Shown one piece after another: positions 427-21,971 of a stretch of DNA of 24,774 nucleotides. The notes beneath the pieces were generated by a model. The model was not told the origin of the DNA, made no database searches, and was given only the letters and a program-made list of their open reading frames with translations. The stretch is from a virus. Its lineage: Duplodnaviria > Heunggongvirae > Uroviricota > Caudoviricetes. Positions within the stretch are counted from its first letter, which is position 1; each line of letters starts with the position of its first letter. The DNA is taken from positions 1 through 24,774 of the IMG/VR virus record IMGVR_UViG_2778261448_000010; one strand, 5' to 3'. The position numbers were made by a program, and so were the translations under genes.

Positions 427-2559
427 TCACTTAAAAGGAGTGTTTATCCTAACAACTCTCAAATAAACATCTCTTATATTTTCACCTCCATTTGGCCTTA
501 AAACTGTTGCTGAAATAACTCCACTTTGTGAAGCAGATACTGTTGCGTTATATACTAATGAACTATTGAATTGTTGAGCGTGTATTTGCCTTGATGTTGT
601 TTCAATTTGCTCTCCGGCTCTCATCATAACTGCATGTTCTGAAAAACACCCGCCAGCACCAGTTGTTGTTGTCGCTGTAACCTCAACTCTATAGAAATAC
701 ATAGCAAGCGTACCTGAGTTTACTGAATTATTTGGAACTGGCACTTGTACGGTTATTGAGACTGGGCCGCTATCAACTCCTGTTGCCTGAGCACACCAGC
801 CAATTTCACCATTCTGAGATATTAATGTGAATATGCATCGATCTTTTGTCCCAGCGTTTACCTGATACGTTGTTGTATAGGTGGCACCATAGAAATGCTC
901 TACGGTTATGGCAGTACCGAAGTTCTCTCCCCAACCAGTCCATGAAGGCCAGATACTGGCATTGCTTTTAATGGCTACGCCATTATTGATGCACTTCAGA
1001 GACACTTTCCCATTATTACAAGAACTCAAGAGCACAGGGACTCCAGGAATGCTGTTCCTTAGTGTTATCTCAACATCCGGCTGCTCTGCGGTTACCAACA
1101 TTAGTGGCTCGACTGTTCTTGGAACCGTATTGAGCGGTATGTTAATCTCCATGTCGCGCACTCGCGTCCTTGTACCGCCACATAGAAATGCGCATACACC
1201 ACCTACATTAGCAGGAAGATAAAGTCGAACACCTTCAAAAGACAAATCAAAAACATCCGATTGAGAATTTGTGATGATTTGAATAAGGTGTATAGGGCCG
1301 TTAACGTTTTCTCCCGTAAAATTACTCTTACTGGTGATGTTTCTGTAAATACCACCTGTTCCTGATACTTTTGCCGCAAACACTGGTGTGTCCGTCATGG
1401 TGCAAACTAAACCATCAACAACACACCCTGTTGACCCCGTGAGTTGTAAAGTTACATTGCAGCCGCCGTATCTGTTAGATAGAAGATTTCCGAACTCACC
1501 ACAGTTTGTTATAGAACCACTAGTGTTATTGATATACATCAGGTGTGACGGACCATACGCACCGAAACTTTCGTCATGCCGCAATGTCCCATACACGTAC
1601 TCAATATTGCATCCTGCAAAGTTGTTAATAAGTGCGCATGAATAGTGTGTACAATAGATGTTAGAGAAGAGAGAGCCTCTAAAATCACCCTCATAACCAG
1701 AAACAAGGAAGTCGTAGCGATTATCGCTGGTTTCACCGACTGCCATCGCATTAATCAATTTGAAACGATACGCGTTTGAATTCATCCCGATAAAGCCACA
1801 GAACGCAGCTTCCCACGGGCGAGTAATTCCATAGCGAGTGGTTGTTGTGCCCCCCAAAGGATAGCCGCCTTTATAGACAGCATTAAATCCCATAATGGTC
1901 ACATCAGGATTCCTGTTCATGAAGACCAGAAATCCAGTTTTCTCATGAGTTATTTTAGCACCGTTAAAATCAATATATGCACCAGCGGGAGGAGTGATGA
2001 CATTTTCCTCATTCATCACCATACGATATGTGGAACCTCTCTTCATGAGGCATCTTCCAGTCATAATAGCATTAGTCACCGCCACTGTATCATCAGCTAC
2101 ACCATCTCCAATTGCTCCATATTGCTCTGGCGTTGCCCAATATGACAAACTATCCGCTACTGTACCAGCCAAGTATCCAATTTTAGTTGCACCATCTTCT
2201 TCAGACAGTTCACTTCGAAATTGATCAGGGTCGTACTTCAGCACATTCGGAAAATAGAACTGCTGCACACCGTACGCATCATAAACAGCCATAGAATGGC
2301 CTTGCACAGTTACGAACTTGGCAATCTGTCCGTTATATACAGGGTAACCAGCAGCGTTAATGATGATTGGTTGCGAAACAGGAACGTGAGAGCCGTCTTC
2401 GTTTTCCACATAAACCTGAATCTGGTTTTCAGGATGTACAGGGTCAGTGTCAATTTTTCCGATATAAATTTTGCCATTGGCTACGGCTTTAAAAGATCGC
2501 GCCATAGTGAAGAGTTGCGAAGGCATCGATACGATCACATTGGCTGTAATGTCTGTCAT
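427..2559 (-). CDS. Tailspike protein (P22 gp9-like head-binding domain, HK620-like length)
   Basis: The 710-aa ORF starts [13 protein letters not shown]...[19 protein letters not shown]...[12 protein letters not shown]...NVLKYDPDQ, matching the conserved N-terminal head-binding domain of P22 tailspike. The remainder differs from P22 gp9. 710 aa is the length I recall for the HK620 tailspike. RBS GGAG lies upstream of the ATG. Confidence 0.9.
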
Positions 2560-2615: not shown

Positions 2616-2642
2616 ATAAAAAAACCCAGCCGAAGCTGGGTC
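2616..2642 (-). terminator. Rho-independent terminator between antirepressor-like gene and tailspike
   Basis: Perfect hairpin CCCAGC-cgaa-GCTGGG (2625-2640), followed on the minus strand by a 7-U tract (plus-strand AAAAAAA at 2618-2624). Confidence 0.7.
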
Positions 2643-2659: not shown

Positions 2660-3590
2660 TCAGTAGTTATGTACTGAAGGAGGCAATTCTTTATTCTTAA
2701 GTCTCATCCATGCGGAAAGATTCGTTGGTCCGTCTGGCTCATTAATATCAACATCTCGTGTGTGGTTTATTAAAACGTCTCTCGCCATTCCGATAACATA
2801 CGAGAATTCATGACCGTAGTCGTAGCATCTGCCGGAATAGTTCGATTGAATTTGTTTTAGCGCCGGATACAGTTCGCGGAATAATGCCTGTGAGCGGTTG
2901 GCATAATCCCATAACCATACAAGGCTGTTTGCTTCTTTTGCAGAAAGCTCGTTGGTTTTCTTCTCTTGTTTGCCAATGAACTCACCTTCAAGTGGAACTC
3001 GAGCTGCAAGTGACAGTGCTTCGGTAAACTGCTCCTCACTGATTTCTTTGTACGAACATCCAAAATGGGATTTCAGTGACGACCACATGGTGATCATCGC
3101 CTTAGCCTGTTTTTCTTTTGGCAGAGACTGACCGCGACTCATGACGAGTTGTTTAATGGCTTCCTGCTGTTCAGTGGTGATTTTACCCGGCAACGCCTTT
3201 TTAGCTTTGCGTGGGTTAACTACATGGCCTTTAGTCCAGTACTCATAGAGCACATCGTCACACTCTTCCTGATACTGGATTACATTGTCGCGGATTTCAG
3301 GACGGACTTTGTTAGGGCTGATGGTTTGCAGCCAACCTGCAAGTTTGCGAAGTGCCAAACAAATAATCTCACGGCACTGTTCATCACCAGGAAGCTGCAT
3401 TGTGATTTTCACAATGGAGGTTTTAAACCGTTGCTTTATTTTCGTAAACTGTGAAGCCCAATCCATACCCATGCCTATCAACGATAGGTTTCATTGGGGT
3501 GTACGGTTCACCGTTGTGATTGACGACATAAAGCTCTGCGCCGTGGAATGGCACGTTGATAGTAGATACTGCCGTTGCTATACTTTTCAT
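2660..3590 (-). pseudogene. Antirepressor-like gene (P22 Ant N-terminal domain family) disrupted by a 1-bp frameshift
   Basis: A 55-codon ORF from ATG 3588-3590 ([38 protein letters not shown]...) ends at stop 3423-3425. The 273-aa track ORF (2660-3481, TTG start) continues the same domain in another frame ([14 protein letters not shown]...LPGDEQ...RKLAGWL...[12 protein letters not shown]...[15 protein letters not shown]). Removing the minus-strand A at about 3476 would fuse them into ...[16 protein letters not shown]... Confidence 0.6.
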
Positions 3591-3678: not shown

Positions 3679-3700
3679 AAAAAACCCACCTGACGGTGGG
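3679..3700. terminator. Bidirectional intrinsic terminator-like hairpin downstream of the lipoprotein gene
   Basis: Hairpin CCCACC-tgac-GGTGGG (3685-3700) is flanked by AAAAAA on one side and TTTCATTTCTT on the other, giving a U-tract on both strands. Confidence 0.65.
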
Positions 3701-3709
3701 TTTCATTTC

Positions 3710-4570: not shown

Positions 4571-6697
4571 TTACTCCTGTGCTATTCCGCTTAGCGACGC
4601 TACAATGCCAGCCCTCGCTAAGCGATTGAACTCTTCGTTTCCAACTGCATCACGTATTGCTTTTACGGCGGCTTTATTTGCCATAAATCTGCGTTCCGCT
4701 GCCGCTAATGCTTCTTTGCTTCCGCCTGTTCTTACTGCTTTAGTGGCTTCCTGAACTGCTTTCTCTATCGCATACCGACCACTACGTGTGGTGGCAATTT
4801 TAGATACAGCGCCTTTTAACCCAGCGCCAACTAAAGCACCTGCGGCAGCGCCTGCAATGCCTCCTCCAGCGCCACCAACAATGGCACCTGATGTTGAGTT
4901 GGCAATTGCATTTAACACTGTTGATGTGACGTTGGATAAACCAGCATCCAGATCGCGTAGTACATTGGCAGTTCTCCCTGTTCTTTCAATATACTGCTGA
5001 GGTTTCACTGCTGCTCTTGCAAGAGTGCCATACGCATCAGCAATTCTTCCAAGCTCTGAGGAATATCTGCTAATGGCTTTTACATTTTGTGGAGTGAGTA
5101 TCTCTGCGATATGGTTAATTCCTGCTGCATCAGCTTTGCCACCACGTACACCATGCGAGATGGCATCCTGCAACATTGATGATATAGCAGGAACACGCTC
5201 TGATTCTGGCAGCGCGCGGATCATAGAATGGAATCCAGCAGGACCATTAAGGCCTTTAGCTGACGATGATTGAAGAGATTTTACTCCATTCGTAATCAGT
5301 GCATCTGTTGCCAAATCACGCCCAAAGACAGACTCTGCACTCTCTTGTGCGGATAACCTCGCTTTAGACAGATCATTAGCTTTTTGCCAGTCATCAAGAA
5401 ATCCGCCGTTTTCCGCCATTGTGCGCATATCATCAGTAATTGCCCGGCGTATTTCCCCTGCTCTCCTTGCCGCATTTGCCTCTCCGCTACGCTTATATTT
5501 TTGCTCCGCATCAGCAAATTTCGCTCTCCATGCTTTCATGCCATCAAATGTTACTCCACCTTGATTGTTTGCCTGAACAAACTGTTTCATTTCAGGAGTA
5601 AGCGGTATGCCAGCAGATCGCTCTGCCTGAATAACGGCATTACCATTTAGCATTCTTGCTTTTTGATTTGGCATTGTTGACCGCACGTCATCCCATGCCG
5701 CGCGCTCGGCATCCTTCATCTGATCAAGATTTTGAAGAATCCTTTGTTTTATAGCCGCACTTTTTTCTGATGCCGTTCCAGATGCGGCCCCAAATTCATC
5801 AAGGTTTCGACTTAACTTTGATGATATTTCGTTAAATGCTGCCTGATGGGCGTCCTGAACAATTCCTGGTGTTGATGCCAATGCTCCTTCGGCTTGTGCA
5901 ATTCCACGACTTCCAGATCGCATTCCTGGTGTTAATGCGTTTATATCAATTCCAGCAGACTCAGCCGCTTTTGCTACATCTTCGGACACATTAGCGGCCT
6001 GACTGGCAATTGACTGACGCCCAGCACCTGACTTTGCCATCCTGGAAACATCATTAGCAGAATTCAGTGCTGCACCACCAAGAGCCTGTGAAACCCTTGG
6101 CGCAATAACGCGCCCAAAACCTGAAAGAACGCCTTGAGCGCCAATATTGATACCACCGTTAATGGCAGCATTTTGTGCAAAGTCGCCCTCCTGATTTGCA
6201 GCATCAGCAAGAGAACCTGCAATCATGTTTCCTGCGGAACCGATGTCTCCTGCGAGCTTTGCTGGCGCTCCAGCAGCTTTTGCCGCTGTGCCAATTGGCA
6301 GGAGATACCCACCAATTGTTTCACCAGCTTGCGCGTAAGGGTCTGTCGGTCTGTCTACTGGACGATAAACATCATCCAAAACCTTGGGGCCACCAAGCCC
6401 CTGACTGATTGCATTAATCAGACTTGCGCCACCCTGCAATACGTCAAATGGTATGTTTACCAGACCACGACCAGCCTGTTCTGCAATTTGCCCTGCACTT
6501 TGACCACCAGTGAGCCAATCGCCAGCTTTTTGCATCAATGATGGTTCTTCACGTGCTGGTTCATTGCTATCCTGGCTGACAGTTTGTTGCTGAACAGACT
6601 GTCCAGCAAAATACTCATCAATGGCAGATCCAATATCTTCCGTGCTCGTACCATCAGGGAAGGTAAATGTCTTACCGTTTGCAGTTACTTTCATCAT
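4571..6697 (-). CDS. Ejection (E) protein gp16-like
   Basis: The 708-aa ORF begins [33 protein letters not shown], matching the P22 gp16 N-terminus as I recall it. It sits after gp20 in the conserved order 7-20-16. Confidence 0.85.
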
Positions 6698-8100
6698 TCC
6701 ACCGTAAATTGAATGCCTGATTTTGAGGTATATGATCCAACCTGATTCCGTGGTTCTCCTGAAGGTATCGAATCTTGTGCTGGCGCTGCGTCAGTATTCA
6801 ATGACATATACCGCTTAACAGCACTCCCCAATGATTCACCTTTTTTAACATCCAACCCCAATATCTGACCGCCATTACGCGATTGTCCAGGGTTGCCATT
6901 CGCGCTCATCCACTCAGCTTTAAACTCATTAAACTGCGCGTTTCGTCGCTCAAGGTTTGCCATTGCATCAAGCCATCTTGCGACCGTCTCAGGGTTATCC
7001 ATGTCAGTTGGCGCACCCTGTCTAACGATCTCAACGTCTTTATCCGTTGCTGGGCCGGGAGGTAGGAATTTAAGAACCTGACTGTTAACAAGGGCATTTT
7101 GGCGAATGCGCAAATCACGCAATGTCGTATCGCTTCCGGTAAGTTTTGCGAACATGTTCTGTGCGTTACCGAACAAACCTGTCGTTGGTTTTTCTGCTCT
7201 GAACTGTTGAGCAAGCGCACTCATAGAATTGGCTGAGTTTGATGATGCTGTGGCATTGTTTACAGCCGTCTCGATGCCTTTTTCCATGTTTACTGACAGC
7301 TTAGGTGCTTCGCTAATCAACTGCTGAGCCTTTTCCTGCGCTTGCTGCATCTTAAACCCGAACTCTTGCTGATCCAGAGCCAAGCGTTGTGCTGCGATAT
7401 TGTGCCCAGTCATTGCTGACTGATAGGAAAGGTTTTGCCCTCTCGCCTGAAGTGCTTCTCCGGCCTGATTGCTGCGGATTGTCTCTGCCAGCCTGCCTCG
7501 GTCAATCTCACGACCAGCCATCTTGTCCTGAACATTGAAGTAGTCAATCGGACCAAGAGCAGCCATTCCAAGGTGATCAACAAACTCACCAAATCCTGAA
7601 GGGTTCTGCTGATACATCTGAGCAACACTGTTAGGGTCAACACCGACGCGAGTCAGTTCCTTGGCGTTGTTTTGCAGCCATGATTGCATTGCTTCTGGAG
7701 ACGATGACGCAAGGCGTGCGCCAGCCGCTAAGGTGCCGATAGAATTACGCTGGTCTTCATCAATGAATCCCATGCCTTTACGAACGGATTCAATCTGGTC
7801 TGGATATTGAGTAGCCAACTGACGCAAAGCACCGCGATCACCAGACGCATAAGCATTAGCGTATGCCTGCTGAAATTCTTTCTGCCGCTGAGCCTGCTTT
7901 TCCTGCTGAAACACCCCCGCAATACCTGAAAGGCCTTGCAAAGCAGTCAGCCCAACATTGTTAGCGCCTGAACGCTCAATATCATTGTTCTGCCTAATAA
8001 GTTGAAGCGTATTGCCGATGTCATTTACGCTCGGAGCGTTTGAGTTGACGCCGCCGATACCAGCCAACAATCCGCCGTTTGTTCCTTGCCAAGTAGCCAT
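6694..8100 (-). CDS. Ejection (E) protein gp20-like
   Basis: The 468-aa ORF ([17 protein letters not shown]...) has the size and position of P22 gp20; its start overlaps the gp16 region. Confidence 0.8.
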
Positions 8101-8109
8101 GATTACCCC

Positions 8110-8802
8110 TTAAAACAACGAGCCAAGCAATCCGATACCAGCACCAATGCCAGCGCCCCAAGGTGTTGATGTTCCCAAAAGGCTGGCAAGACCTGCACCG
8201 GCAATCGCACCAGACGTTCCGCCACTAATTGCAGTCTGAAGACTTGATGGTTTATTGGCATTAGCAGCGGCAAGAGCTGCGCTTTGCTGTGCAATGCTGC
8301 TCATGTTGTTGGCGTACGTCTGCCCGGCGTTTGCCTGACCTTGCAGCGCACCAAGCCCAACGTTTGCCAGATTGTTGTAATTGCTCATCTGGTTTGATAA
8401 CCAAGACTGACCGAGTGTCGGCGCGATCGTAGCCAGTTGATTGCTTATGGCTGTCGAACCAAGTCCGCCAGTCGCTTCCGCAGCAGCAAGACTCTGGTAA
8501 CGAGCCTGACCTGCAAGGTCTTTATACTGCTGAGAATTGTAATACTGATTAAGTGCCTGTCCCTGACCTTCTAAACTGGAAAGATTCTGAAGCTGGTTAA
8601 CATACTGCTCCGCAAGCGGCGTGAACGGAGCAAGGTTTTTCATGATCGTCTGCCACTGCTGATTTTGCAGGTCTGCGGCATACTTCTGAGCTTCTGCGGC
8701 ATACTTTGCGCTTTTATCAGAACTGCCACCTTTCCCGCCTTTTTCAGGGCAATAAGGTTCCTCGCCGCGCAGTTTTCTGCCCATCTTAAATGCATATAAC
8801 AT
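8110..8802 (-). CDS. Ejection (E) protein gp7-like
   Basis: The 230-aa ORF MLYAF.MGRKLRGEEP..PEKGGKGGSSDKSA.YAAEAQKYAADLQNQQWQTIMKNL... closely matches P22 gp7 (229 aa) as I recall it. Confidence 0.85.
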   Translation of the reverse strand: MLYAFKMGRKLRGEEPYCPEKGGKGGSSDKSAKYAAEAQKYAADLQNQQWQTIMKNLAPFTPLAEQYVNQLQNLSSLEGQGQALNQYYNSQQYKDLAGQARYQSLAAAEATGGLGSTAISNQLATIAPTLGQSWLSNQMSNYNNLANVGLGALQGQANAGQTYANNMSSIAQQSAALAAANANKPSSLQTAISGGTSGAIAGAGLASLLGTSTPWGAGIGAGIGLLGSLF

Positions 8803-8804
8803 GG

Positions 8805-9260
8805 CTATCTCCCGTGATTCAGGAAGTCGATTAGTTCTTCGCGTGTGGCGCTGTAAAACGTCACGTCATCCACGCCTTTAAAGTATTTCTTGATGGTTCC
8901 GACACGCTTAAGGCCAATCATTGCGCAGTAAATCTGCCCGTGGCGGAATTTGCGTGCGGCGAACGATGTGACGCACTGAACGGTGGTGTTAGTCAGAATG
9001 TATTTCCAGAACTCCAGCCCGATTTCCTTGCTGAATCCACGAATCTCTGGCAGGTACATGGCGTGGCAATCGAATGTCAGCGGCTGAATCTCCTGATAGT
9101 AAACAATGCCGCCGAACTGCCCGTGCACGTTCACCTCAAAGTAACGGCATTCAGGTTTGTAGTCGTATCCATCACCGTTGTTGCTCCCGGCAATAATGTC
9201 AGGGTGATTTCCGACTGCTTCTATCAGGTCGATGTTTCGCGTTGGTTTGAACTGAATCAT
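8805..9260 (-). CDS. gp14-like virion/DNA-ejection assembly protein
   Basis: The 151-aa ORF lies between tail needle and gp7, the position of P22 gene 14. Confidence 0.65.
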   Translation of the reverse strand: MIQFKPTRNIDLIEAVGNHPDIIAGSNNGDGYDYKPECRYFEVNVHGQFGGIVYYQEIQPLTFDCHAMYLPEIRGFSKEIGLEFWKYILTNTTVQCVTSFAARKFRHGQIYCAMIGLKRVGTIKKYFKGVDDVTFYSATREELIDFLNHGR

Positions 9261-10108
9261 TACTGCTCCGCGATTATCTTGATGGTTGTGGCAGTAAACG
9301 CCGCAACATTCGACTGAATGGTTAACGTGCTGCCATTTGTGGCAAGAAAGCCGTCTTTATCCACGCTGAAGAACGTAGCTAACAGGATGTTATCGGTTGT
9401 TGTCGCTGCATTACGACTGCTGACCAACGTGTCAGGAACAGAGCCGGAAAAGGTTAGCTGCATTGACCTGTTGGCGGTTCCGCTGGGCCACGTCCCGACG
9501 ATCGACAGCTTGAAGAACAAGGTTTTGTTCTCGTTGAACACAACCATCTTGTTGTTAACAGTGTCGAAGAATGGTGCCAACGAGCCGGATGACGGCGTGA
9601 GCGTTTTCAGCAGGCTAACAAGGTTGGTCGGCGCTGTCGGGATGGTTACAGATACGCCAGAGTAAACAACCTCTGACTTCTTGCGATTAGTGGCATACTC
9701 CAGAGCATCGATGCGCGTTTCATGGTCTGAAAGCGTGTTTTGAATGGCGATAACTTCATCAGTCAGATAATCAATATCGTTTTCTGCTGTCGTTAATCGT
9801 GAATCAAGGCCGACTATCGCCGCTTCTGCGTTAGTGATCCTTGTTTCGTGGTCCTGTATCTTCGCTTCAGCCGATGCCAGTCGAATTTCGTGATCGACCA
9901 GAATCACATCCTGCTCATCGTTCCTGACCTGTGCATCATAAGCGCCCTGTCCGGCCTCGTTGGCTTTGTTAGCCACGTTACCAACATCAGTTCCCTGTGC
10001 GATAACGTAAAGCAGATACGACTGCGAGAAGATATTACGCGGAAGGACTGATGTGTCGAGTCGTGTAGCCTGAATGATTACCGGCACATTAAGATTCGAA
10101 TCAGCCAT
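9260..10108 (-). CDS. Tail needle protein gp26-like with C-terminal knob extension
   Basis: The 282-aa ORF has an N-terminal coiled-coil heptad region ([50 protein letters not shown]) followed by a beta-rich C-terminal domain. It sits between gp10 and gp14. Length fits the Sf6-type knobbed needle rather than the 233-aa P22 needle. Confidence 0.8.
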
Positions 10109-11526
10109 TACTCAATCCTTATCTGGCAGCCAGACAGAGTGACAGGTGACTTAGTGATAACGCGCAATTTGAAGCCAATGTTTTTCCTGATGCGCCCTAC
10201 TTTCTTCCACAAAACGCGTTTGTCGTAAACGAACGGTTCATTCTGCTCAATCATCTGCTCACGCCCGTAATTGATGCCGTCAGTGGTTGCAGAGAGGAAC
10301 AGGCGGTCAGCGTACTGCGCAACGCCAGTTGAAGATTCAACTTCAAGGTCGAAAACTCTGGCGTTATCTGCTTTGAACAACGGAGTAAACAGCAGGTGTT
10401 CTTGTTGCTTGTCGTACTGGCTGCCGATATCGAACTGCAGTTTCCCGGTAACAGATTCCAGCTTATCGCCGCACGTTATCTGATTGCCTTCGTAAATGAA
10501 GTCGATAGCGCGGTACACATCGTCATACAGGCCTGTTTTCAACACACACCATTGCGGACCATTGGCGCTTGAAGATGCGTCGTACACGAGGACGTGACGT
10601 GGAAGATGGATAATCAGCAATTCATGAGCATCAAAGCGCAACGATTCCATCACGCCATCAGCCAGTTCATCAGCAGTGTAGGAGCGGAGGATTTTCTCAA
10701 TGCTCGCGCTGGCGATTGGTGACACCTGACCGGAGCCGATGATGTATACAGACGGCGCACCTGTTGCCGGATTGCTTATGAACGCATACGAATCAGCAAA
10801 CGGCGTTTTGCAGTAAGTCCCGGCGATGCCTTTTTGCACCATCAGTGATGGCTGTGCGACATACAAAGCGGCACCAACGGTGGTTGCGCCAGTCAGGGAG
10901 AAATATTCAATCGTCGATGAGCCAAAGCAAACGATGAAGTCTCGCCATGTACCTATGCCGATGATGCCGTCCGGCTGCGATTCTGCGCGATATTGTGCGC
11001 TGTAACGGTCAGGATGCGATTCGTCTTCAAGGTCAGTGATAAACCACGAATCAGTTCCGTCTTTTGACCACGCATAACGCCCACGTAAGCGTGTAATGTC
11101 GCGGACTGAGCCTAACTCATACTGCGTGAATCCGCTGTCTGTAGGCCAGTTTGAGACGGTTTTAACCGTGCCATCATAGCGATACTCAACCAGTTGACCA
11201 TTAACGCCTACAGCCTGAGATGTTCGACCATGCGCCATTGATACGCGACCACTTCCGGCGACGTCACCGACTTCGCTTTCGCCTTTGTAGAGCTTGCCGC
11301 CACACACACGATAGACAGCATTCTGCGCCATGTTGTACTCGACGCCGCGCGATACACCGTTCACATCAGAGCGTTTGGCAATGCCCGGGAATGAGCGAAG
11401 ATATCCGCTGCTGTTCAGGATTTCTTTGGGGGTTGCCAACATATTCACTGGCAGATAGTCGATATAGTCGGCGTTTCGAAAGTCTTTGCCGACACCTTTC
11501 ATAAGCGGAAGTTGCTGAATCGGCAT
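10108..11526 (-). CDS. Tail hub protein gp10-like
   Basis: The 472-aa [52 protein letters not shown]... is near-identical over the N-terminus to P22 gp10 (472 aa) as I recall it. Confidence 0.9.
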
Positions 11527-11535
11527 TTATTCACC

Positions 11536-11997
11536 TCACGTACTCGGATCATCTTTCTCGATGTAAAACCGATTCCACGTAAACGCGCTTTTGTTACCAC
11601 TACCGCGAGGCATGTCATTTCTCCGCTCAAGTGGTGGTATTTTGGTTAAACCGATACAGATTGTCTGATATGCACTGTCAGCAGCGGTAAGGAGAGCGTC
11701 TGACGGCTGAATGACGTTATCCATGCACACTTGCACAGCGAGTTTCAAAGCGACGCCATCATTTGCCCATGCAGGGATACCTGAATCATCGTCAGGTAAC
11801 GGCATGATGCCGTTTTCTGTATCAGCAAACTGATACCCAAGCTCGATACCTTTTGCCTGCCATGCTGCCATCATGTCTTCGAGGTCATTAATGGCATCTT
11901 CAATTGCCTGAGGGTCAGCATCTGTCAACGTGGCATTGGAATACAGCCCGGCTTTTCGTAAAGCCTTAAGAACGAGATCACCCTTCGTTTTCGCCAT
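11536..11997 (-). CDS. Tail adaptor/head-completion protein gp4-like
   Basis: The 153-aa ORF ..KTKGDLV.KALRK.G...ATLTD..PQ...DA.NDLEDMMAAW.. matches the P22 gp4 N-terminal pattern and sits immediately upstream of gp10. Confidence 0.8.
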   Translation of the reverse strand: MAKTKGDLVLKALRKAGLYSNATLTDADPQAIEDAINDLEDMMAAWQAKGIELGYQFADTENGIMPLPDDDSGIPAWANDGVALKLAVQVCMDNVIQPSDALLTAADSAYQTICIGLTKIPPLERRNDMPRGSGNKSAFTWNRFYIEKDDPST

Positions 11998-12166
11998 CTT
12001 CTTCCGCCTTAGCCACTTTTTGCTTCGTTGCGGTTTCTTCAGGAGTTTTTACCCAGCCTTTTTTCAGGTGAGATTTAACTTCTTCGTCATCAACAATGAT
12101 GTAATCGACAGCAAACTGACCACAGGTGATCATGTTGCCCGGCTTATAGAGCATTGTTCGTGCCAT
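11978..12166 (-). CDS. Small hypothetical protein between coat and gp4
   Basis: ATG at 12164-12166 (MARTMLYKPGNMITCGQFAVDYIIVDDEEV..., 62 aa) is preceded by GGGAGAAG and placed just after the coat terminator. The track's longer start (12202) would lie inside the terminator hairpin. Confidence 0.5.
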   Translation of the reverse strand: MARTMLYKPGNMITCGQFAVDYIIVDDEEVKSHLKKGWVKTPEETATKQKVAKAEEDGENEG

Positions 12167-12177
12167 TGTCTTCTCCC

Positions 12178-12203
12178 AATAAAAATGGGGCCGAAGCCCC
12201 ACC
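12178..12203 (-). terminator. Intrinsic terminator immediately downstream of the coat gene
   Basis: Hairpin GGGGC-cgaa-GCCCC (12187-12200) followed on the minus strand by a U-tract (plus-strand AAAAAT 12181-12186), starting 5 nt after the coat stop. Confidence 0.65.
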
Positions 12204-12207
12204 TAAA

Positions 12208-13461
12208 TTACTGCCCGGCAATAACGATGCCCGTATATTCAGGAACCAGTACAGAGCAACCGTACAGAGTGGTGAAACGCGCAGTGGTTACGCCTTTGAT
12301 GTGGTCGAAGGCGTAAGACATGATCAGCGTAGCGCCCTGCTCGGTGGTTGCTGTCATTACCTGTGGACCCTGACCAGTCGGGAACGCCAGTTTGCCGTAC
12401 ATCAGTTCAACAGAACCATCAGCCCAGAACAGGTTAGCCGGTGCGGCATTTTTGTTGAGAATGGTGATTGCTGCGCTACTTGCCGCATTAGCATCAACGT
12501 TTGCATATGGACGGCTGGCGACATCCGCGTTGTCAGGCGGCAGAATTTTCGGGGAGATAGTTACTGTCGTTCCGCTAACTGCCAGAACGCGGAATACCTG
12601 CGGCTGCCCGGTGGTATCTTTGGTGATCTGGTGTACGGAATTCACCCCTGCGATGGTAAACGCATCGCCAACCTGCAAACCTTCAGCAGATACCGTAATG
12701 GTCCCCTGTCGGTTATCCACTGGCATATCGTTAGCATCTTTCGCTTCAACCTTGTGCGCAGGTGCTGCTGCCAGCGTAATGGAAGTTGCTGTACCCTTCG
12801 GAACACGACCAGAAATATCGGTCTTGTAGCTATCGAAGGACGCAACCGGAGGGATCTGCGCTTTTTCGTATGCTGTCAGGGTTGCGCCCTGAGCATAGGC
12901 ACGGTGACCAAGCTCGCCAGCAAGGTCTTTGTAGTTGAAGGGGTTCCAGAAAGAGCGGCGGTTGATACCCTGTGGTACACCAATCGCCGTCATGGTGGCA
13001 TCAATACCTGCCGCACAGTTCCACAAATCACGGCCCTGTGAACCAGTGGTTGAGTCAGCCATCGTGATCACGTTAGTAGCACGCTGCGTAACCATGGAAA
13101 TCAGGTCAGAGTCAATCTGTGCAGCAAGGCGCATACCTGCGGCGCGACCAGCTTCAGTTTTATGCTCAGGGTCACGCATTTCACGCGCATCCAGAGTGTA
13201 CAGAATGTTTTTCGGCTCCTTGAACACAGAAGGAACAAGGCGCTGAACCAGTGCTGTTGGCGTTTTGCTGCTGAGATCTAGGCCTTCTTCAATGTTCATG
13301 TGGTAATGCTGCGGACGATACAGAACATCACCTGCTCGCTGCATTGCTGTATCACCGGGACGGAATTTTTTAGCGTTACGGGAAACTACGCAGGCGGCCT
13401 CAAAGCCTTCAACGTAGTTTTCGAACATGATTTCAAGGTCTTTTGCTAATTGGTTAGCCAT
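12208..13461 (-). CDS. Major capsid (coat) protein
   Basis: The 417-aa ORF follows the scaffold gene and is followed by a terminator, the position of P22 gene 5. The 295-aa plus-strand ORF overlapping it is judged spurious. Confidence 0.85.
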   Translation of the reverse strand: MANQLAKDLEIMFENYVEGFEAACVVSRNAKKFRPGDTAMQRAGDVLYRPQHYHMNIEEGLDLSSKTPTALVQRLVPSVFKEPKNILYTLDAREMRDPEHKTEAGRAAGMRLAAQIDSDLISMVTQRATNVITMADSTTGSQGRDLWNCAAGIDATMTAIGVPQGINRRSFWNPFNYKDLAGELGHRAYAQGATLTAYEKAQIPPVASFDSYKTDISGRVPKGTATSITLAAAPAHKVEAKDANDMPVDNRQGTITVSAEGLQVGDAFTIAGVNSVHQITKDTTGQPQVFRVLAVSGTTVTISPKILPPDNADVASRPYANVDANAASSAAITILNKNAAPANLFWADGSVELMYGKLAFPTGQGPQVMTATTEQGATLIMSYAFDHIKGVTTARFTTLYGCSVLVPEYTGIVIAGQ

Positions 13462-13479
13462 GCTTAATGCTCCGATAGG

Positions 13480-14373
13480 TTATTTTTTTGCCTTTTTAGC
13501 GGCGAAATACGGCGTCCAGTCACCAGTTTCCAGCGCCTTGGCTTTCAGTTTGTCGAGGTTATTGATTACTGCGCCGTTGCTCCCCTTAACTGTCGGGGTT
13601 GTGGCTGCCGTGGTTTTTGCTTTTGGCATGATTCTGGCCTTAGATTCGATACGTTCCAGCAGACGACCAATTGCTACGGGGTTGGTAGCTTCTGCCAGTT
13701 GCTTGCGCAGTTCAGCGTTGCGACCAAGCGCCAGAACAACGATTTCCGGCTTCTCTGACTCAAACAGGATCGCGTTTTGTGTCTCGATGGGGATTTCCTC
13801 GAGTACGGCCTGTTCTGCTTCCTGATAGCCAGGAACCTTGAGAGCCTTAACACGTTGCTGATATTTGGATAATCGCTCTTGATAAGCAGCATGAAGCTCC
13901 TGCTCCTTCTGCTTGCGAGCCATCTCCTGTTGCTGGTACTTTCCGTTATCCTCTGCCCACTTAGCCATGCGTTGCTGATAGATTTCTTCATCGAAACCGA
14001 TGTCCTCATCATCCAGTTTTGGCATTCGCGGTGGTTGAGTGATTACCGGCTGCTGCTCGACGGGTTTCTGAGACTGACGCATCAGCTCTTTCAGCTCACG
14101 GTCTTTCTCTTTAATCGTCTTGCGCAGGTGTTTTACCAGTCCATGCTCTGCGCCATCTTCGCTGGTTGGCGAATCCAGCTTTTCGTCACCAAAGTAGAAT
14201 TCCTGTTCTGATTCGTCGTCATCAGTTTCAGTAGCTTCCTCTGCATCATTGCCGGAGGACTCACTGCCATCTTCTGTTTCGACTTCTTCAGCCAGTTCGA
14301 CATCATCAGGAATCTGCTCTGACGCGTCGGTTTCGATTTCAACTTCTGGTGTGTTTTCTGCCATCTGGTCCAT
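13480..14373 (-). CDS. Scaffolding protein
   Basis: The 297-aa ORF has a highly acidic N-terminus, a K/E/Q-rich helical middle and a basic C-terminal tail (KAKALETGDWTPYFAAKKAKK). It lies between portal and coat. Confidence 0.8.
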   Translation of the reverse strand: MDQMAENTPEVEIETDASEQIPDDVELAEEVETEDGSESSGNDAEEATETDDDESEQEFYFGDEKLDSPTSEDGAEHGLVKHLRKTIKEKDRELKELMRQSQKPVEQQPVITQPPRMPKLDDEDIGFDEEIYQQRMAKWAEDNGKYQQQEMARKQKEQELHAAYQERLSKYQQRVKALKVPGYQEAEQAVLEEIPIETQNAILFESEKPEIVVLALGRNAELRKQLAEATNPVAIGRLLERIESKARIMPKAKTTAATTPTVKGSNGAVINNLDKLKAKALETGDWTPYFAAKKAKK

Positions 14374-14463
14374 TTGTTACCCCTGTTTACTCGATGTTCA
14401 GCCCATCGGAAGGCAATAGGGTGCCAGGCCTCATAAAGACAGCCATTGCACGTTATGGGTTAA

Positions 14464-16662
14464 TTACTGCTGTGGTTGTTGCTGAGTTGATTTTTGCAGG
14501 ATGCTGCTGATGTCCATGCGCTGCGCATGACCCTGTGCCTGACTTTTCAGGACAAGCTCTGCATCAGCACGGGCATTGTCTCCTTGCTGTTGCTGGAACT
14601 GTCCAAGCAGTTTCAGAGCCTCGCGGATATCAGATTTCTGCTGGCTATCGGCAGATGCGAGGATTTTCACAACGTTTGCCGCTGCAACCTGAGCATCAGT
14701 CTGTGCCTGGAATGCTTTAACCTGAATGGCTGCCTGTTCGTTCTGCGCTTTCTGCAATTCAGCCTGACCTGCAAGAAGCTGACCTTGCGCTGCAACCATA
14801 GCCGGATCTGGCTGACTGGCCTGTTGTTGTTTCGCCTGCTCAACCATCTGCTGTTCTTCTGGTGTTCTCGGCTTGATAACTCCAGACAGAAGCAACTGAT
14901 TGCGGTTGTATTCTTTAAGGTCGTCCATCCCTTCGCCGTCCATATTGTCGAGAATCATCGACGATACAAGGTCGTGCTTCGGCGTTCCTGGTGGGATAAG
15001 TGCCAGCATGGAAAGTAACGACTTAACCGTTGCGTCACGGCGAGTAGCGAACGACTGACCGACATCGACAGTCACTTCATAGTTACCCTGCGAAAGGTCG
15101 TTAAGCGCGATAACCTGCCCTGTCTGACGGTCAACCACTTCACCAGTCATCAGCGCCACGTCATCGCTGCCGTCCTCATTAACGATACGCATCGGCGTAT
15201 CACTGCCATAGACCTCACGCGCCATAGAAAGCCACACAACGCCAGCGCGACGCATGGATTTAGCCATGTTGTCCATGTAGATATAGGACTGCGTGTCCAT
15301 CCGGTTAAAAATGCTATCAACGGTATCGGTGGCGACGTTGCTCGGCATGTTCTCAAGCTGCGACGCACCTGTAATTTGCTGAATAGCCGTTCCGGTGTAC
15401 TGCAATAGCCCGGCAAGAGCTGGCGGCATTTGTGTCGGAGGTGTCCAGCCAGCAACCTGAGCTTCTGAAATGACTGTTCCGTTTTTGTCCTTCTTGCTGG
15501 TCATAGGAAGAACTGCAGGTCTTTTCTTATTCCTCTCTGCCCAGTGATTCATTAATGGGCCGGGAATGAAATCAACATCCACGATAGGAATGCCATCACC
15601 GCCAGCCTGAGTAGCGTTATCTGCAATCATGGAAACCATCAGGTTCTCAAGACGCTGTGCATCCATCGCTTTTGCAGCGTGGCCTTCGATTCGCTCCTGA
15701 TTATCAACAAATGAGCGACGCCCATATACCGGGATGAGAGGAATATGTTCACCCGGAATACGCTTCGGTTCTTCCAGCCATTCAGCGCCAGACAGAAGAC
15801 CGCAATAAACGCGGCGCTTCTTCACCGTTCGCTCGCCAATCAGTTCGAATGCACCATCGGTCAGCTCGTCGACAATATCTTTGATTTGCTCTTCATCATA
15901 GATTGCCGTTTCTCCGCTAACAGGGTTGCGCCACGCCGTGAGCTTCACCTTCTCTATGCGAACTTCGTAGTAGCGTCCAACATAGATGGCATCGGGCGTT
16001 GACCAGTCATATTGAGTACCAGTGTCATCACGAGAAAGACTTGCCGCGATGGAATCAGGGTATTCAGCCTCGAACGCTTTAGGGGTCATGGAGAACATTT
16101 CCATAGCCCACATAGCATCAGAGCGGTCATATTGCTTGCTGTCCTGATCGAAGAAGACGCATGTCGCTGGGTCGTAAACAGGAAGAAGGCTGATGCGTCG
16201 CTGATCGTTACTTGGGTCCATTTCATCTTCGTAATCGGCACACATGCGGAAACAACCGAATCCGCCCGTTACAGCATCATCAAATGCGTTATCACACGCT
16301 TCGCCACCGGATGTTTCCTGATAGTCAGCGCGGAATTTGCCGTTCATCTTTTCGGCTAACGCTTCCGATGCCTTATCGTCCTTCGGCCTGAATTTAACGC
16401 TGATGCGATTCTGTCGATACTCGCCAATGATGCGATCACATTCACGGGCAATCTTATTCAGTTCAAAGCGCGGATAATGCTCGAACCTGCCTTCATCAAA
16501 TGAGTAACCAGCATTTGTGCTGCCTTCCCACTGTGCGCCGGACACCCTGACGAAGCGTTGAGCTTCTATAATCTGCTCACGCATATCCTGCGTTGCTGAC
16601 CAGGCATTATCAAAGTTGCACAGCACCTTGCGATGCCAGTCAGTCATCTTTTTTTCTGCCAT
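14464..16662 (-). CDS. Portal protein
   Basis: The 732-aa ORF directly follows terminase large subunit. Its C-terminus is a Q/A-rich helical region (...DPAMVAAQGQLLAGQAELQKAQNEQ...) like the P22 portal barrel, and an internal segment RRVY...GEHIPLIPVYG resembles the P22 portal. Confidence 0.85.
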   Translation of the reverse strand: MAEKKMTDWHRKVLCNFDNAWSATQDMREQIIEAQRFVRVSGAQWEGSTNAGYSFDEGRFEHYPRFELNKIARECDRIIGEYRQNRISVKFRPKDDKASEALAEKMNGKFRADYQETSGGEACDNAFDDAVTGGFGCFRMCADYEDEMDPSNDQRRISLLPVYDPATCVFFDQDSKQYDRSDAMWAMEMFSMTPKAFEAEYPDSIAASLSRDDTGTQYDWSTPDAIYVGRYYEVRIEKVKLTAWRNPVSGETAIYDEEQIKDIVDELTDGAFELIGERTVKKRRVYCGLLSGAEWLEEPKRIPGEHIPLIPVYGRRSFVDNQERIEGHAAKAMDAQRLENLMVSMIADNATQAGGDGIPIVDVDFIPGPLMNHWAERNKKRPAVLPMTSKKDKNGTVISEAQVAGWTPPTQMPPALAGLLQYTGTAIQQITGASQLENMPSNVATDTVDSIFNRMDTQSYIYMDNMAKSMRRAGVVWLSMAREVYGSDTPMRIVNEDGSDDVALMTGEVVDRQTGQVIALNDLSQGNYEVTVDVGQSFATRRDATVKSLLSMLALIPPGTPKHDLVSSMILDNMDGEGMDDLKEYNRNQLLLSGVIKPRTPEEQQMVEQAKQQQASQPDPAMVAAQGQLLAGQAELQKAQNEQAAIQVKAFQAQTDAQVAAANVVKILASADSQQKSDIREALKLLGQFQQQQGDNARADAELVLKSQAQGHAQRMDISSILQKSTQQQPQQ

Positions 16663-16663
16663 A

Positions 16664-18079
16664 TCAACCTACACCACAAGGAATTGAGTAACTGGAATAG
16701 TCGGTTTGCGCAGCCGACTCCGGGCAATGCATACACATCATCAACGCATCAGCCAGGTTAGGAGATGGGATCCCGAGCTTTTGCTTCATTTCGACCTTAG
16801 TCATAAGCTCCAGCTTCCCGTTGTTATTGAATTTGCGCTGAATCTGCGTCAGTTCTGCAAACAGCTTCTCCAGCATCTTCTCGCCTATCGCTTCTTTGTC
16901 GAAACTCAGCATGTCGTCGGGGTCTGCATACTCACCGTGGGCAACCGCCCGATATGTCAGATACAGCCTGTCAGCCAGCGCGTAATAGAATTGCGCTCGC
17001 TTATTGCGGAATACATCGCCAATAGTGCGAACGTTGTCGCCCTGTACGACTTCATCAGCCCATGCTCCGGCCTGATACGGAGCATCTTCATCGAATGGCG
17101 ATTCGCTGCCCTTGAACATCGTGGCGGTGATTTTCTTGCCGGAGAACGCTTCCGTTGTCTGTCTGCGTAGCCCGGCACCAACACCATCACCATCCCACAG
17201 GTAATGGTCAGCACCGTCTTCAATCGCCAGCGAAGTTGCCCAGTCAGCACCTTCATTGATGTCCATCAGCAGACCTTCGGCAATGCGCTTAACAACCGAA
17301 CCGTGACGCGATGCATAACCTTTAGCATCTGGCCCTGTATCTGATGGGTCATGCGCAGAGACAACAGCGCCTTTCGCTTTCCATCCGAGTTTCTTGTGCG
17401 CATCGGTTGCAGCTTCAAGCCATTCTCGCTTGATGATTGCCATATCACTTGCGCTTACTGGCTCACCAAGCCAGATGTGACGATACAATGTCGGATTTCT
17501 GCGTTTGCACTCTTCCATCTCCAGACGGAGAACTTCAGGAAAATGCGGGTTGTCGGTGTAGTTCACCGTCAGCAGGCAAATATCATCGGGAGGATTTACG
17601 ACGAATCGCTGATAGGTATCGTCGAGGATGTTTTTCGGGTTAAAGCTCACCCATATTTCGGAAAATGGCTTGCGGATGGTTGGGATCAGGATATCCCATG
17701 ATTCCTTCGTTACCGCTTCCGCTTCCTCCACCCAGCAGATATCAATACCTTCTAGCGATTTAATCTTCGTCGGGTTGTTTTTGATGCCGTAGAACATGAA
17801 TTCAGCATTCGTTCCGAGATGACGAATCATGGAACGCTGAATTTCAAACTCAGCCGAATAGCCTTCCCGCTCTATGGTGTCTTCAAGCAACCGGATTACC
17901 GAATCGCTGATACTGTTTTGCAGTTCACGAGCGCAGAGAATACGCACAGGCTGCCGACGCGCCGCCTCAACAAGCAGCCTCGCAATTGCCCATGACTTAC
18001 CGCTACCTCGACCGCCTTTGGCGACTTTGTAGCGATGCGCCTCAATGAACGGTTCAAAGATAGGATTAATCGAGGTCAT
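16664..18079 (-). CDS. Terminase large subunit (Sf6 gp2-like)
   Basis: The 471-aa ORF carries a Walker A motif (VAKGGRGSGKSWA) and matches the Sf6 large terminase N-terminus as I recall it. Its start overlaps the small-subunit stop (ATGA). Confidence 0.9.
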   Translation of the reverse strand: MTSINPIFEPFIEAHRYKVAKGGRGSGKSWAIARLLVEAARRQPVRILCARELQNSISDSVIRLLEDTIEREGYSAEFEIQRSMIRHLGTNAEFMFYGIKNNPTKIKSLEGIDICWVEEAEAVTKESWDILIPTIRKPFSEIWVSFNPKNILDDTYQRFVVNPPDDICLLTVNYTDNPHFPEVLRLEMEECKRRNPTLYRHIWLGEPVSASDMAIIKREWLEAATDAHKKLGWKAKGAVVSAHDPSDTGPDAKGYASRHGSVVKRIAEGLLMDINEGADWATSLAIEDGADHYLWDGDGVGAGLRRQTTEAFSGKKITATMFKGSESPFDEDAPYQAGAWADEVVQGDNVRTIGDVFRNKRAQFYYALADRLYLTYRAVAHGEYADPDDMLSFDKEAIGEKMLEKLFAELTQIQRKFNNNGKLELMTKVEMKQKLGIPSPNLADALMMCMHCPESAAQTDYSSYSIPCGVG

Positions 18080-19189: not shown

Positions 19190-19626
19190 AACCTCGTCTA
19201 GTTGTTCGCCATAGATTCAGTGGCAGGCGGTGACGAGTCCGCTTTTCGGGAGCTACCCTAGCCACTGCTTGATTCTATCCGATGTCTTTCCATCAGTCCG
19301 CCACCACAAAGAATCTTTTTTGCCATAAGGCAGGAGGTTCATCTTTCAGTGGCTGCCAGTGTTATTTCCCCACTTACTGGCTTGGGTTGCTTCGTGGTAC
19401 TGCCGTTAACTGGTTGCCCAGAATAAATTCCGGTTTCATTATCAAGCCCACCCGTAGATAGGCTTTGTAATGAACTGGCTCTTATCTCAACGCAGCCCCT
19501 TACCGCGCGCCAGATGCTCAATATCAAGCATCAGCAATGAGATGTTTAATCTGGATTCACTCCAGAAGTGATCACCACCCTGTCTACAGAGCCAGATGTG
19601 AAGGATGATGAGTAAAATTATCGCTA

Positions 19627-20844: not shown

Positions 20845-21392
20845 GTCTTACCCCCAGAAGGGGATCTGTTCAAATTAGGAATTATGGATATGGTCGCTTG
20901 AACAAATCCTGGTTACGGTTGATTTGTAACGGGTTTGTTCGTGACCGCATTCATGAGCAAATCATGCGTGGATTGCGCCAACAATACATGCCGCTCATAT
21001 CACGAAGCCCAGCCATTGATGCTGGGTTTTCTTTTTTAAAGCGCACTAGACCACCGTATCCACAGAGTGTCAGCAATGAGTTGGTTAGGTCTGGTTCTTG
21101 GTGGAAGTACGCTTTAAAAAATGGGCTGAGGGTTGTAGACCAAAATACTGAGGTAATGGTAATGGTGAAAAACGGTTTTGCTCTGGGTGGATTTGGCTGT
21201 GGTGGCCGGCGCTGATCTCCGGCTTGTATACAGGCACCTTGTTCTTCCGAAGCTCTCCTGCGCGCATCAGCCTGCGCATTCACCACACCGGAAAGAGCAC
21301 TCAGTTGTACCGGCCAGTTGTGCCACTAAGAAATGCTTTCGCAGACCGTTAAGCTCTTTGCCAGTTCTTTAATGCTCTTACCTGTTGTGCAA

Positions 21393-21436
21393 ACAAAAAA
21401 GCCACCGTTGCAACTTAAGAGTCACTAACGGCAGCT
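21393..21436 (-). terminator. tR'-like terminator of the short late-leader transcript
   Basis: On the minus strand a hairpin (AGCTGCCGTT...AACGGTGGCT, two mismatches) is followed by TTTTTTGTTTG, then by ...GCACAACAGGTAAGAGCATT, which resembles the lambda sequence just downstream of tR'. Confidence 0.55.
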
Positions 21437-21439
21437 TAC

Positions 21440-21476
21440 CCTCTAATTATGGCTAAATGGCTAACTGCATGTCAAG
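21440..21476 (-). promoter_or_regulatory. Putative late promoter P_R' overlapping the Q stop codon
   Basis: On the minus strand: TTGACA (21470-21475), an 18-bp spacer, then CATAAT (21446-21451). The Q stop TAG lies within the spacer. Confidence 0.5.
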
Positions 21477-21971
21477 GCTTTTAACAGCAACATGCTTAAC
21501 TTTCTCAACACGTTTACGCATTTTGAAAGCATTTTGCATTGGTTGGTACAAAACAAATAACGACGCTTTCAGGATGTCGTCAATTTCGTTTCTACAGGTT
21601 GCCAGTGAAGGTTTTCTCCATCCCTCGCCACCACGTCCACACATCTTGCGTGGCTTTGCAGTCGCGTGATAGTAGGATGCAATTGCTCGCTTAGATGAAC
21701 CATGAGCGTAGTAGCTGAGGAGGATGCCAAAGGCTTTCTTGTCAATGTACATGACGGAATCGACGACCTGAGAAATCAACATTCCATCATCATCATTGCA
21801 CATTGGCCTTGTCATAACTCTTCCCGGCTCTACGCTCTCCATGAACTTCGCTATTACGCTGCTCATACGCTTTTCCAGACGACCTGAATAAACCCATGCG
21901 CCCCACAGTTCAAGCCAGCCATTCAGCCACTCGTGCTGTTCTTTGGTGAGGTTTAGTTCTCTTATGCTCAT
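21453..21971 (-). CDS. Q: Late-gene antiterminator Q (phage 82/21-type family)
   Basis: The 172-aa ORF contains the motifs LELWGAW and RPMCNDDDGMLI, resembling Q-family antiterminators of lambdoid prophages. It lies immediately upstream of the late promoter and lysis genes. Confidence 0.7.
   Translation of the reverse strand: MSIRELNLTKEQHEWLNGWLELWGAWVYSGRLEKRMSSVIAKFMESVEPGRVMTRPMCNDDDGMLISQVVDSVMYIDKKAFGILLSYYAHGSSKRAIASYYHATAKPRKMCGRGGEGWRKPSLATCRNEIDDILKASLFVLYQPMQNAFKMRKRVEKVKHVAVKSLDMQLAI

Follow-up and report, generated by a model that had tools for sequence, protein, structure and literature searches.

A structurally conserved, putatively leaky terminator and a small phrog_1175 gene between the coat and gp4 genes of a CUS-3-type P22-like prophage

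Directly past the coat gene of a P22-like prophage segment lies a GC-rich hairpin with a U-tract, followed by a small open reading frame (ORF) that runs into the start of the homologue of P22 gene 4. Both the hairpin and the ORF are real, far beyond what chance would produce. They belong to a module known in all P22-like phages, in which a terminator termed 't coat' closes the terminase-portal-scaffold-coat block and is followed by a small non-essential gene and then by gp4. It is likely, in our judgement, that the present locus is the CUS-3-type copy of this module, with a leaky terminator that would favour scaffold and coat mRNA, and with an ORF that would be translated and probably coupled to gp4. 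As a discovery the locus carries little weight: the post-coat terminator and the small gene are already known and annotated in the P22, Sf6 and g341c reference records, and the idea of attenuation is already in print as a hypothesis (for phage L, and in the Sf6 and g341c records). A terminator-like hairpin that is conserved in structure across very distant phages with P22-type heads is nevertheless a good case for the tuning of capsid-to-tail stoichiometry in Q-antiterminated operons.

Genomic context of the post-coat locus

The window, by which we mean the whole 24,774-nt stretch of DNA analysed here, is a CUS-3/Sf101/Huey/Kapi1-type segment of a P22-like (Lederbergvirus) prophage. Over 501 bases around the hairpin and the small ORF, 11 deposited phages are 98.0-99.8% identical to it, and Kapi1 is 98.8% identical at the post-coat locus. 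A 311-base version of the locus was found in 428 of 5,426 complete E. coli genomes (~8%), nearly always in the chromosome. All the relevant genes (coat, hairpin, small ORF and gp4 homologue) are carried by the minus strand (Table 1), on which the order is Q-like antiterminator, lysis genes, small and large terminase, portal, scaffold, coat, and then the hairpin and the small ORF. On the 3' side of the small ORF follow, in this order, homologues of P22 gp4, gp10, gp26, gp14, gp7, gp20 and gp16, beyond which lie an ant-type region and then the tailspike gene. The coat locus is labelled 'major head protein' or 'P22 phage major capsid protein family' in Sf101, CUS-3, Huey and E. coli prophages; PF11651 was found at a locus related to the coat gene, and PF11650 at one related to the gp4 homologue. 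Two antisense ORFs on the plus strand (11930..12316 and 12154..13041) were taken as shadows of the minus-strand genes.

Some features of the window lie apart from this locus. The tail-needle (gp26) homologue, at 9260..10108 on the minus strand, has 282 aa, which is the length of the Sf6 gene, and the needle of the otherwise near-identical Sf101 has 212 aa, an instance of mosaicism within the tail genes. The sole Rfam match at gathering score in the window is an int-alpA RNA (RF02996, 45.1 bits, E=1.7e-6) at 19206..19268 on the minus strand, within the 1.1 kb that separate the Rz-like spanin gene from the gene for the small terminase. ARAGORN found no tRNA genes in the whole window, and the Kapi1 (PMC12922286) and BTP1 (PMC7067206) reports describe tRNA genes in the late regions of those phages.

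Table 1. Features of the post-coat locus and of late-operon control (window coordinates)
Feature	Position	Strand	Basis or remark
Q-like late antiterminator gene, head of the late operon	21453..21971	-	phrog_943, E=1.8e-93
PR'-like promoter (TTGACA-18-CATAAT) and tR'-like long hairpin followed by UUUUUUGUUU	21385..21475	-	by eye; fold
Coat (major capsid) gene, 417 aa	12208..13461	-	ORF list; stop TAA 12210..12208
Putative terminator hairpin UGGGGC-UUCG-GCCCCA, 6 perfect pairs and UUCG tetraloop	12186..12201	-	sequence, folds, scan, covariation
U-tract UUUUUAUU, 7 U of 8	12178..12185	-	sequence; starts at first base past the stem
Shine-Dalgarno-like GGGAGA	12172..12177	-	sequence; 5-6 nt 5' of the small-ORF ATG
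62-aa ORF, homologue of P22 orf69 (phrog_1175)	11978..12166	-	ATG 12166, TGA 11980..11978
gp4 homologue (head-tail adaptor, 'packaged DNA stabilization')	11536..11997	-	ORF list, annotations, tblastn to P22 gene 4
Strong predicted terminator, rule matched on both strands	3684..3701	.	strict scan; further down the late operon
Strong predicted sense-strand terminator	2624..2641	-	strict scan; between the ant-like gene (2660..3481) and the tailspike gene

Structure of the hairpin and comparison with chance

Read along the minus strand, the coat stop codon is followed by the spacer UUUAGG (12207..12202), the 5' arm UGGGGC (12201..12196), the UUCG loop (12195..12192) and the 3' arm GCCCCA (12191..12186). 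Five of the six stem pairs are GC, and the stem can be extended by an A-U and two successive G-U pairs to 12204..12183. The first-pass annotation had placed a GC-rich hairpin with a U-tract directly past the coat gene, at 12178..12203, and on this the sequence, the folds and our strict scan agree. It had also put the stem 5 nt after the coat stop, which is right as to the position just past the stop and wrong as to the distance: the perfect stem begins at 6 nt, or at 3 nt if the extra two G-U and one A-U pairs are counted. On the opposite (plus) strand the hairpin is followed by ACCTAAAT, with no T-tract, so that the terminator is not symmetrical. RNAfold gave -11.2 kcal/mol for the core hairpin and -13.8 kcal/mol for the extended one, and in a fold of the 81-nt context the hairpin is dominant (z = -3.35). 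With a GC-rich stem, a short loop and a U-tract, in sense orientation and past the end of a gene, it has the sequence features expected of an intrinsic terminator.

We applied a strict rule, by which all 6 bp of the stem had to pair perfectly with no fewer than 4 of them GC, the loop had to measure 3-8 nt, and 6 or more of the 8 bases that follow had to be T. Both strands of the 24.8-kb window then yielded 5 sites (7 overlapping hits), the post-coat hairpin among them, whereas 100 dinucleotide shuffles averaged 0.25 hits. Three of these sites lie on the late-operon strand, namely the post-coat hairpin and those at 3701..3684 and 2641..2624. A generic terminator scan of window positions 8000..18000 did not list the post-coat hairpin, the best terminator in those 10 kb, a false negative that arose because greedy G-U extension of the stem takes three U residues, whereupon the T-count rule fails; the false negatives of that scan are hairpins with a G- or A-rich 5' flank. 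Rfam gave no match at the post-coat hairpin.

Conservation of the hairpin among phages with P22-type heads

The comparison was extended to the coat-to-gp4 region of a panel of 15 P22-type head modules, assembled by tblastn against a phage collection and from annotated regions. The panel consisted of the window, Sf101, P22, Sf6, g341c, IME10, Proteus V3, Kosakonia Kc166B, Sortsne, Lumpael, Sodalis phiSG1, APSE-1 (Hamiltonella), Pseudomonas AH02, Vibrio 1.275.O and Ralstonia RSK1. All 15 carry a GC-rich hairpin and a T-rich run directly 5' of the ORF slot that precedes gp4, the T-rich run being weakest in phiSG1. A match to the perfect-stem rule was found 5-22 nt past the coat stop in 11 of the 15, often as the sole sense-strand match in ~5 kb; RSK1 also matches the rule, but past its extra gene, and in phiSG1, APSE-1, Sortsne and Vibrio 1.275.O the hairpin departs from it by a wobble pair, a bulge or a shortened T-run. 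Stem sequences vary across the panel (among them UGGGGC, AGGGGC, GGGAGC, GGGGCC, GGGCGC, GGCCUCGC and GCCGCCC), with hairpin free energies from -9.3 to -16.2 kcal/mol.

In an alignment of 8 relatives, 48 of 48 cells were paired and compensatory double changes were apparent in 2 of the 6 pairs, the closing pair being U-A, A-U or G-C and the fourth G-C or A-U. No compensatory change occurred in any of the slid registers of this alignment, and its covariation score was reached by none of 500 shuffles, a test to which we attach modest weight because it comprises only 8 sequences. Among 80 near-identical relatives (35 unique sequences), retrieved from viral contigs by way of the gp4 homologue, the stem was intact in 34 of the 35 unique sequences; these loci are 99% identical in gp4 and reflect polymorphism, not diversity. 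Across distant phages with P22-type heads, the hairpin is kept by structure rather than by sequence. That the T-rich run is kept together with the stem in nearly all lineages argues for selection for termination, beyond selection for a stable hairpin.

Two variants of the layout were seen in the panel. In Sortsne, Lumpael and Kc166B, a spacer of ~45-60 nt past the terminator (~1575..1613, ~1615..1664 and ~1725..1770 of the respective extracted regions) contains a shared GGCTTATACT motif, in Kc166B in the form TATATACT, which may be a promoter at which transcription starts anew past the terminator; the window has no such spacer. In RSK1 (1198..1953 of the extracted region), the capsid gene is separated from the hairpin by an extra gene of 229 aa (ORF5) without a PHROG match, and the hairpin (GCCGCCC-UUCG-GGGCGGC with a U-tract) stands directly before the phrog_1175 ORF (ORF6). 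The RSK1 layout would be compatible with a terminator that follows the last shell gene, if ORF5 were a decoration protein, and equally compatible with a terminator that travels with the small ORF.

The small ORF and its overlap with gp4

The stretch from the U-tract to the ATG at 12166 reads GGGAGAAGACA, and the aligned relatives have GGAG or GAGG at the Shine-Dalgarno position. A GTG at 12202, within the hairpin, would give an alternative start (74 aa) but was dropped because the N-termini of the family align to ATG 12166. It can be read directly from the sequence that, as had been noted at first pass, the 62-aa ORF has its own Shine-Dalgarno motif and overlaps the gp4 start, the overlap with the ATG of the gp4 homologue (11997) being exactly 20 nt. 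The same arrangement, overlap or abutment, occurs in every panel phage with an annotated ORF in the slot, among them P22 (17 nt), Proteus V3, Kc166B, g341c, Vibrio 1.275.O, AH02, Sortsne, Lumpael and RSK1. A ribosome-binding site of its own, together with the overlap, suggests translational coupling of gp4 to the ORF, and from the geometry of the 20-nt overlap we consider that gp4 translation is probably coupled in this way.

The first-pass annotation had taken the small ORF to be absent from the canonical P22 gene order. This proved mistaken, as P22 has orf69 at the same place and the two proteins are homologous (BLASTP E=4e-7; hhalign of a 30-member family alignment against orf69, 97.4% probability, E=1.1e-11). 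The 62-aa protein matches phrog_1175 ('unknown function') over residues 2-56 (E=9.2e-29), and P22 orf69 (E=4.5e-31) and RSK1 ORF6 fall in the same PHROG. A homologue search had been proposed as a check, and the ORF proved conserved: phmmer, run exhaustively against 1.84 billion representative proteins, gave 35 clusters at E<=1e-3. A word-indexed protein search returned close relatives only, and Pfam and NCBIfam have no family for the protein. The small ORF is under purifying selection and evolves as a protein-coding gene: when its 40 N-terminal codons were compared with those of three diverged relatives, dN/dS was 0.18, 0.26 and 0.32. It is a real, conserved phrog_1175 gene, and not a novelty.

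Members of the family share an N-terminal module of ~45 residues, MLYKxGxxIxCGxxxxDYIIVDxxxVxxxLxxGWxKTPxE, in which M5, G37 and W38 are invariant among 30 sequences. The AF2 model of the 62-aa protein (pLDDT ~90 over residues 1-40) confidently predicts this domain to be a novel alpha/beta mini-fold. Past the module, the tail is variable, acidic and lysine-rich in the family, disordered and charged in the window protein, and the gp4 start that it overlaps constrains its final residues. The tails of several relatives contain RGRP, KKPGPKPK or GRKPK, with one weak PF02178 match (E=0.015); the AT-hook core R-G-R-P is absent from the short tail of the window protein, TKQKVAKAEEDGENEG. Sf101 gp06 is labelled as a virion structural protein in RefSeq NC_027398 alone, GenBank and the other records having 'hypothetical'. 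In the phage L virion mass spectrometry study (PMC8022706), orf186 is not among the proteins named in the text, and our literature search found no functional report on P22 orf69 or Sf6 gp6.

Variation and annotation at the slot were also recorded. The protein of the common E. coli variant P0008, compared with that of the window (1801..1870 of the extracted variant region against window 12166..12100), differs in the first ~20 residues (MSQIMLYKPGSMITCGPHSL vs MARTMLYKPGNMITCGQFAV) and is identical thereafter; confinement of the difference to the N-terminus suggests a recombination junction inside the small ORF. The ORF is unannotated in IME10 (~1945.. of the extracted region; MTHMIFRHGDMKKWKG...) and in APSE-1 (~2016.. 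of the extracted region; MERKSVFAWSDNAAGYVQAVI..., Sf6-gene-6-like), the APSE-1 record having the antisense ORFs P25 and P26 in its place.

A chance hairpin next to a spurious, functionless ORF would account for the small size of both and for the lack of a Pfam or NCBIfam family. This explanation is already refuted by the conservation data and retains practically no probability, given the shuffles, the covariation, the presence of the hairpin in 15 of 15 lineages, the phrog_1175 membership, the 35 clusters, the dN/dS values below 0.35 and the confidently predicted fold. A more elaborate explanation is that a single conserved regulatory cassette comprises the hairpin, the ribosome-binding site and the phrog_1175 ORF together with the gp4 start, in place of a terminator that simply comes after the coat gene. 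The protein of the cassette would regulate the dosage or assembly of head completion; it might, for instance, set the synthesis of gp4 by translational coupling, or bind DNA or RNA as packaging gives way to completion. We entertain this because the RSK1 hairpin adjoins the phrog_1175 ORF despite the extra gene, and because of the mini-fold and the AT-hook-like tails of relatives, and regard it as quite improbable.

Late transcription and the role of the hairpin

Late control in the window is lambdoid in layout, in that a PR'-like promoter, assigned by eye, and a tR'-like hairpin come after the Q gene. Lambdoid Q proteins render RNA polymerase resistant to terminators. A consensus scan of the minus strand found no promoter-like sites from 12178 to 11200. 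Of the two other strong terminators on the late-operon strand, the one at 3684..3701 follows a 143-aa phrog_6823 ORF, and late transcripts would have to read through both to reach the essential tailspike gene. From a Q-antiterminated operon, the lack of a promoter found downstream and the essential nature of gp4, gp10, gp26 and the ejection genes, we infer that the post-coat terminator is leaky; with a Q-type antiterminator driving the late operon, termination at the hairpin would be partial only.

In the model that we propose, Q-modified RNA polymerase would carry late transcription and read through the post-coat terminator most of the time in lytic growth. The scaffold and coat mRNA would gain a stable hairpin as its 3' end, most likely by partial termination and/or by protection against 3' exonucleases after cleavage, and messages for the high-copy shell proteins would stay more abundant than messages encoding the low-copy adaptor, needle and ejection proteins. 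Transcription without Q would be stopped fully at the hairpin. The small ORF has a ribosome-binding site of its own, 11 nt past the U-tract, which would probably serve for its translation. Modest termination, 3' stabilisation and a stop for non-Q transcripts would plausibly not be mutually exclusive. It is reasonable to read the hairpin as a putative terminator that lowers the expression of the genes for head completion, tail and ejection. The same terminator appears in the phage L paper, which states that for such intra-operon terminators the 'roles are not known' and offers either partial termination or the stopping of transcription without gp23/gp24 antitermination (PMC8022706). In the accessible literature we found no 3'-end mapping or termination assay for any P22-like phage.

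Expression data from a close relative are consistent with a difference across the hairpin. According to the Kapi1 lysogen RNA-seq report, scaffold and capsid rank among the four phage genes with the highest expression and lead the late genes (PMC12922286). Induction of these lysogens was spontaneous, and the data do not distinguish termination from a difference in mRNA stability; the levels fit an asymmetry between the upstream and downstream sides of the hairpin. In BTP1, dRNA-seq placed four promoters in the capsid gene cluster (PMC7067206), and promoters of this type could be another source of high scaffold and coat transcripts.

Given that Q-modified polymerase resists intrinsic terminators and that two more strong terminators precede the tailspike gene, attenuation in lytic growth may be small. 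The hairpin might then be a pure element of RNA stability, in which case Q-modified polymerase would ignore the terminator, the hairpin would block PNPase and RNase II after endonucleolytic cleavage downstream, and scaffold and coat mRNA would outlive the distal part of the transcript. Such a role would accord with the presence of a Q antiterminator and a tR', with strong terminators before the essential tailspike gene that need readthrough anyway, with the stable UUCG-capped GC stem, which is typical of 3' protective hairpins, and with the high scaffold and capsid levels in Kapi1 (PMC12922286). An exonuclease barrier needs no U-tract, yet the T-rich run is present in nearly all 15 lineages, and we judge a role in stability alone to be unlikely.

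The hairpin is also a strong canonical terminator, as predicted, for unmodified RNA polymerase. It could act as an insulator, silent for Q-modified polymerase and fully stopping transcripts from internal or spurious promoters that are not antiterminated; it would thereby either close a nested scaffold-coat unit or keep the tail and ejection genes silent in the lysogen. Against this, a consensus scan of the minus strand from 18000 to 12200 found no sigma-70-like promoter, and the same hairpin is present in Sortsne and Lumpael, which belong to other genera and which we take to be virulent, so that silencing in a lysogen would be irrelevant there. The four capsid-cluster promoters of BTP1 keep the nested-unit model alive (PMC7067206), and we regard insulation as possible, if rather doubtful. 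The leaky terminator favouring scaffold and coat mRNA is the explanation that we prefer. The phrog_1175 protein that accompanies it is widespread and under purifying selection.

Comparison with annotated counterparts and other phages

The synteny of coat gene, hairpin, small ORF and gp4 is identical in the window, P22, Sf6, g341c, Sf101 and CUS-3, and the 62-aa ORF itself has been called in Sf101, CUS-3 and PGAP-annotated E. coli prophages. In the P22 record (NC_002371), a stem_loop at 6102..6119, described as 'putative; similar in location to stem-loops in phage HK97 and phage lambda', lies 5 nt past gene 5. Next comes orf69 (6135..6344), whose overlap with gene 4 (6328..) is 17 nt. P22 and the window thus share the succession of coat stop, 5-6 nt, xGGGGC-tetraloop-GCCCCx, U-tract, ribosome-binding site and small ORF over gene 4. 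They differ in the closing pair (U-A in the window, A-U in P22) and in the loop (UUCG in the window, UGCG in P22). The two homologous proteins are 26% identical, that of the window having 62 aa and orf69 having 69 aa, and the basic stretch KPRKGRKPK of orf69 is missing from the window protein. According to PMC2629481, orf69 goes back to Eppler et al. 1991, which is cited there, and is non-essential.

The Sf6 record (NC_005344) has 't coat' at 6147..6173, a 'stem-loop that is likely to be a transcription terminator', of the same position and architecture as in the window, and gene 6 (61 aa), whose overlap with the gp4 homologue is 26 nt. We considered whether the window ORF might be homologous to Sf6 gene 6, annotated as 'similar to HK620 hkbT', and rejected this (hhalign E=0.68); Sf6 gene 6 matches only phrog_3251 and is a positional analogue only. 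By eye, the APSE-1 ORF in the same slot is apparently not detectably homologous either. In g341c, a 'Rho-independent terminator' is annotated past the coat gene and is followed by gene 6. Gene 6 of epsilon34, gene 6 of g341c and orf186 of phage L agree with the small ORF of the window in the position of the hairpin and have a homologous N-terminal MLYKxG domain. Unlike the window protein, their products have 186 aa and an inserted WDGH domain (PF25311, E=1.7e-40), from which it follows that the small-ORF slot tolerates domain insertions. In these epsilon34/L-type homologues, such as g341c gene 6 (1648..2208 of the extracted region), the WDGH insert lies between the N-terminal module and the basic tail.

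Outside the P22-like phages, lambda and HK97 have stem-loops after their major head genes, a likeness that we take from the note in the P22 record, and their late operons are likewise Q-antiterminated; their head genes are unrelated in sequence to those of the window. In phage T7, the leaky intrinsic terminator T-phi follows the major capsid gene 10. Inefficient terminators are used in T7 to balance gene expression (PMC9163698). The post-coat terminator would resemble T-phi in logic only, as a terminator placed past the most-needed capsid gene, with no relation in sequence, and in T7 this logic operates with a phage-encoded RNA polymerase and without Q-type antitermination, unlike in the window.
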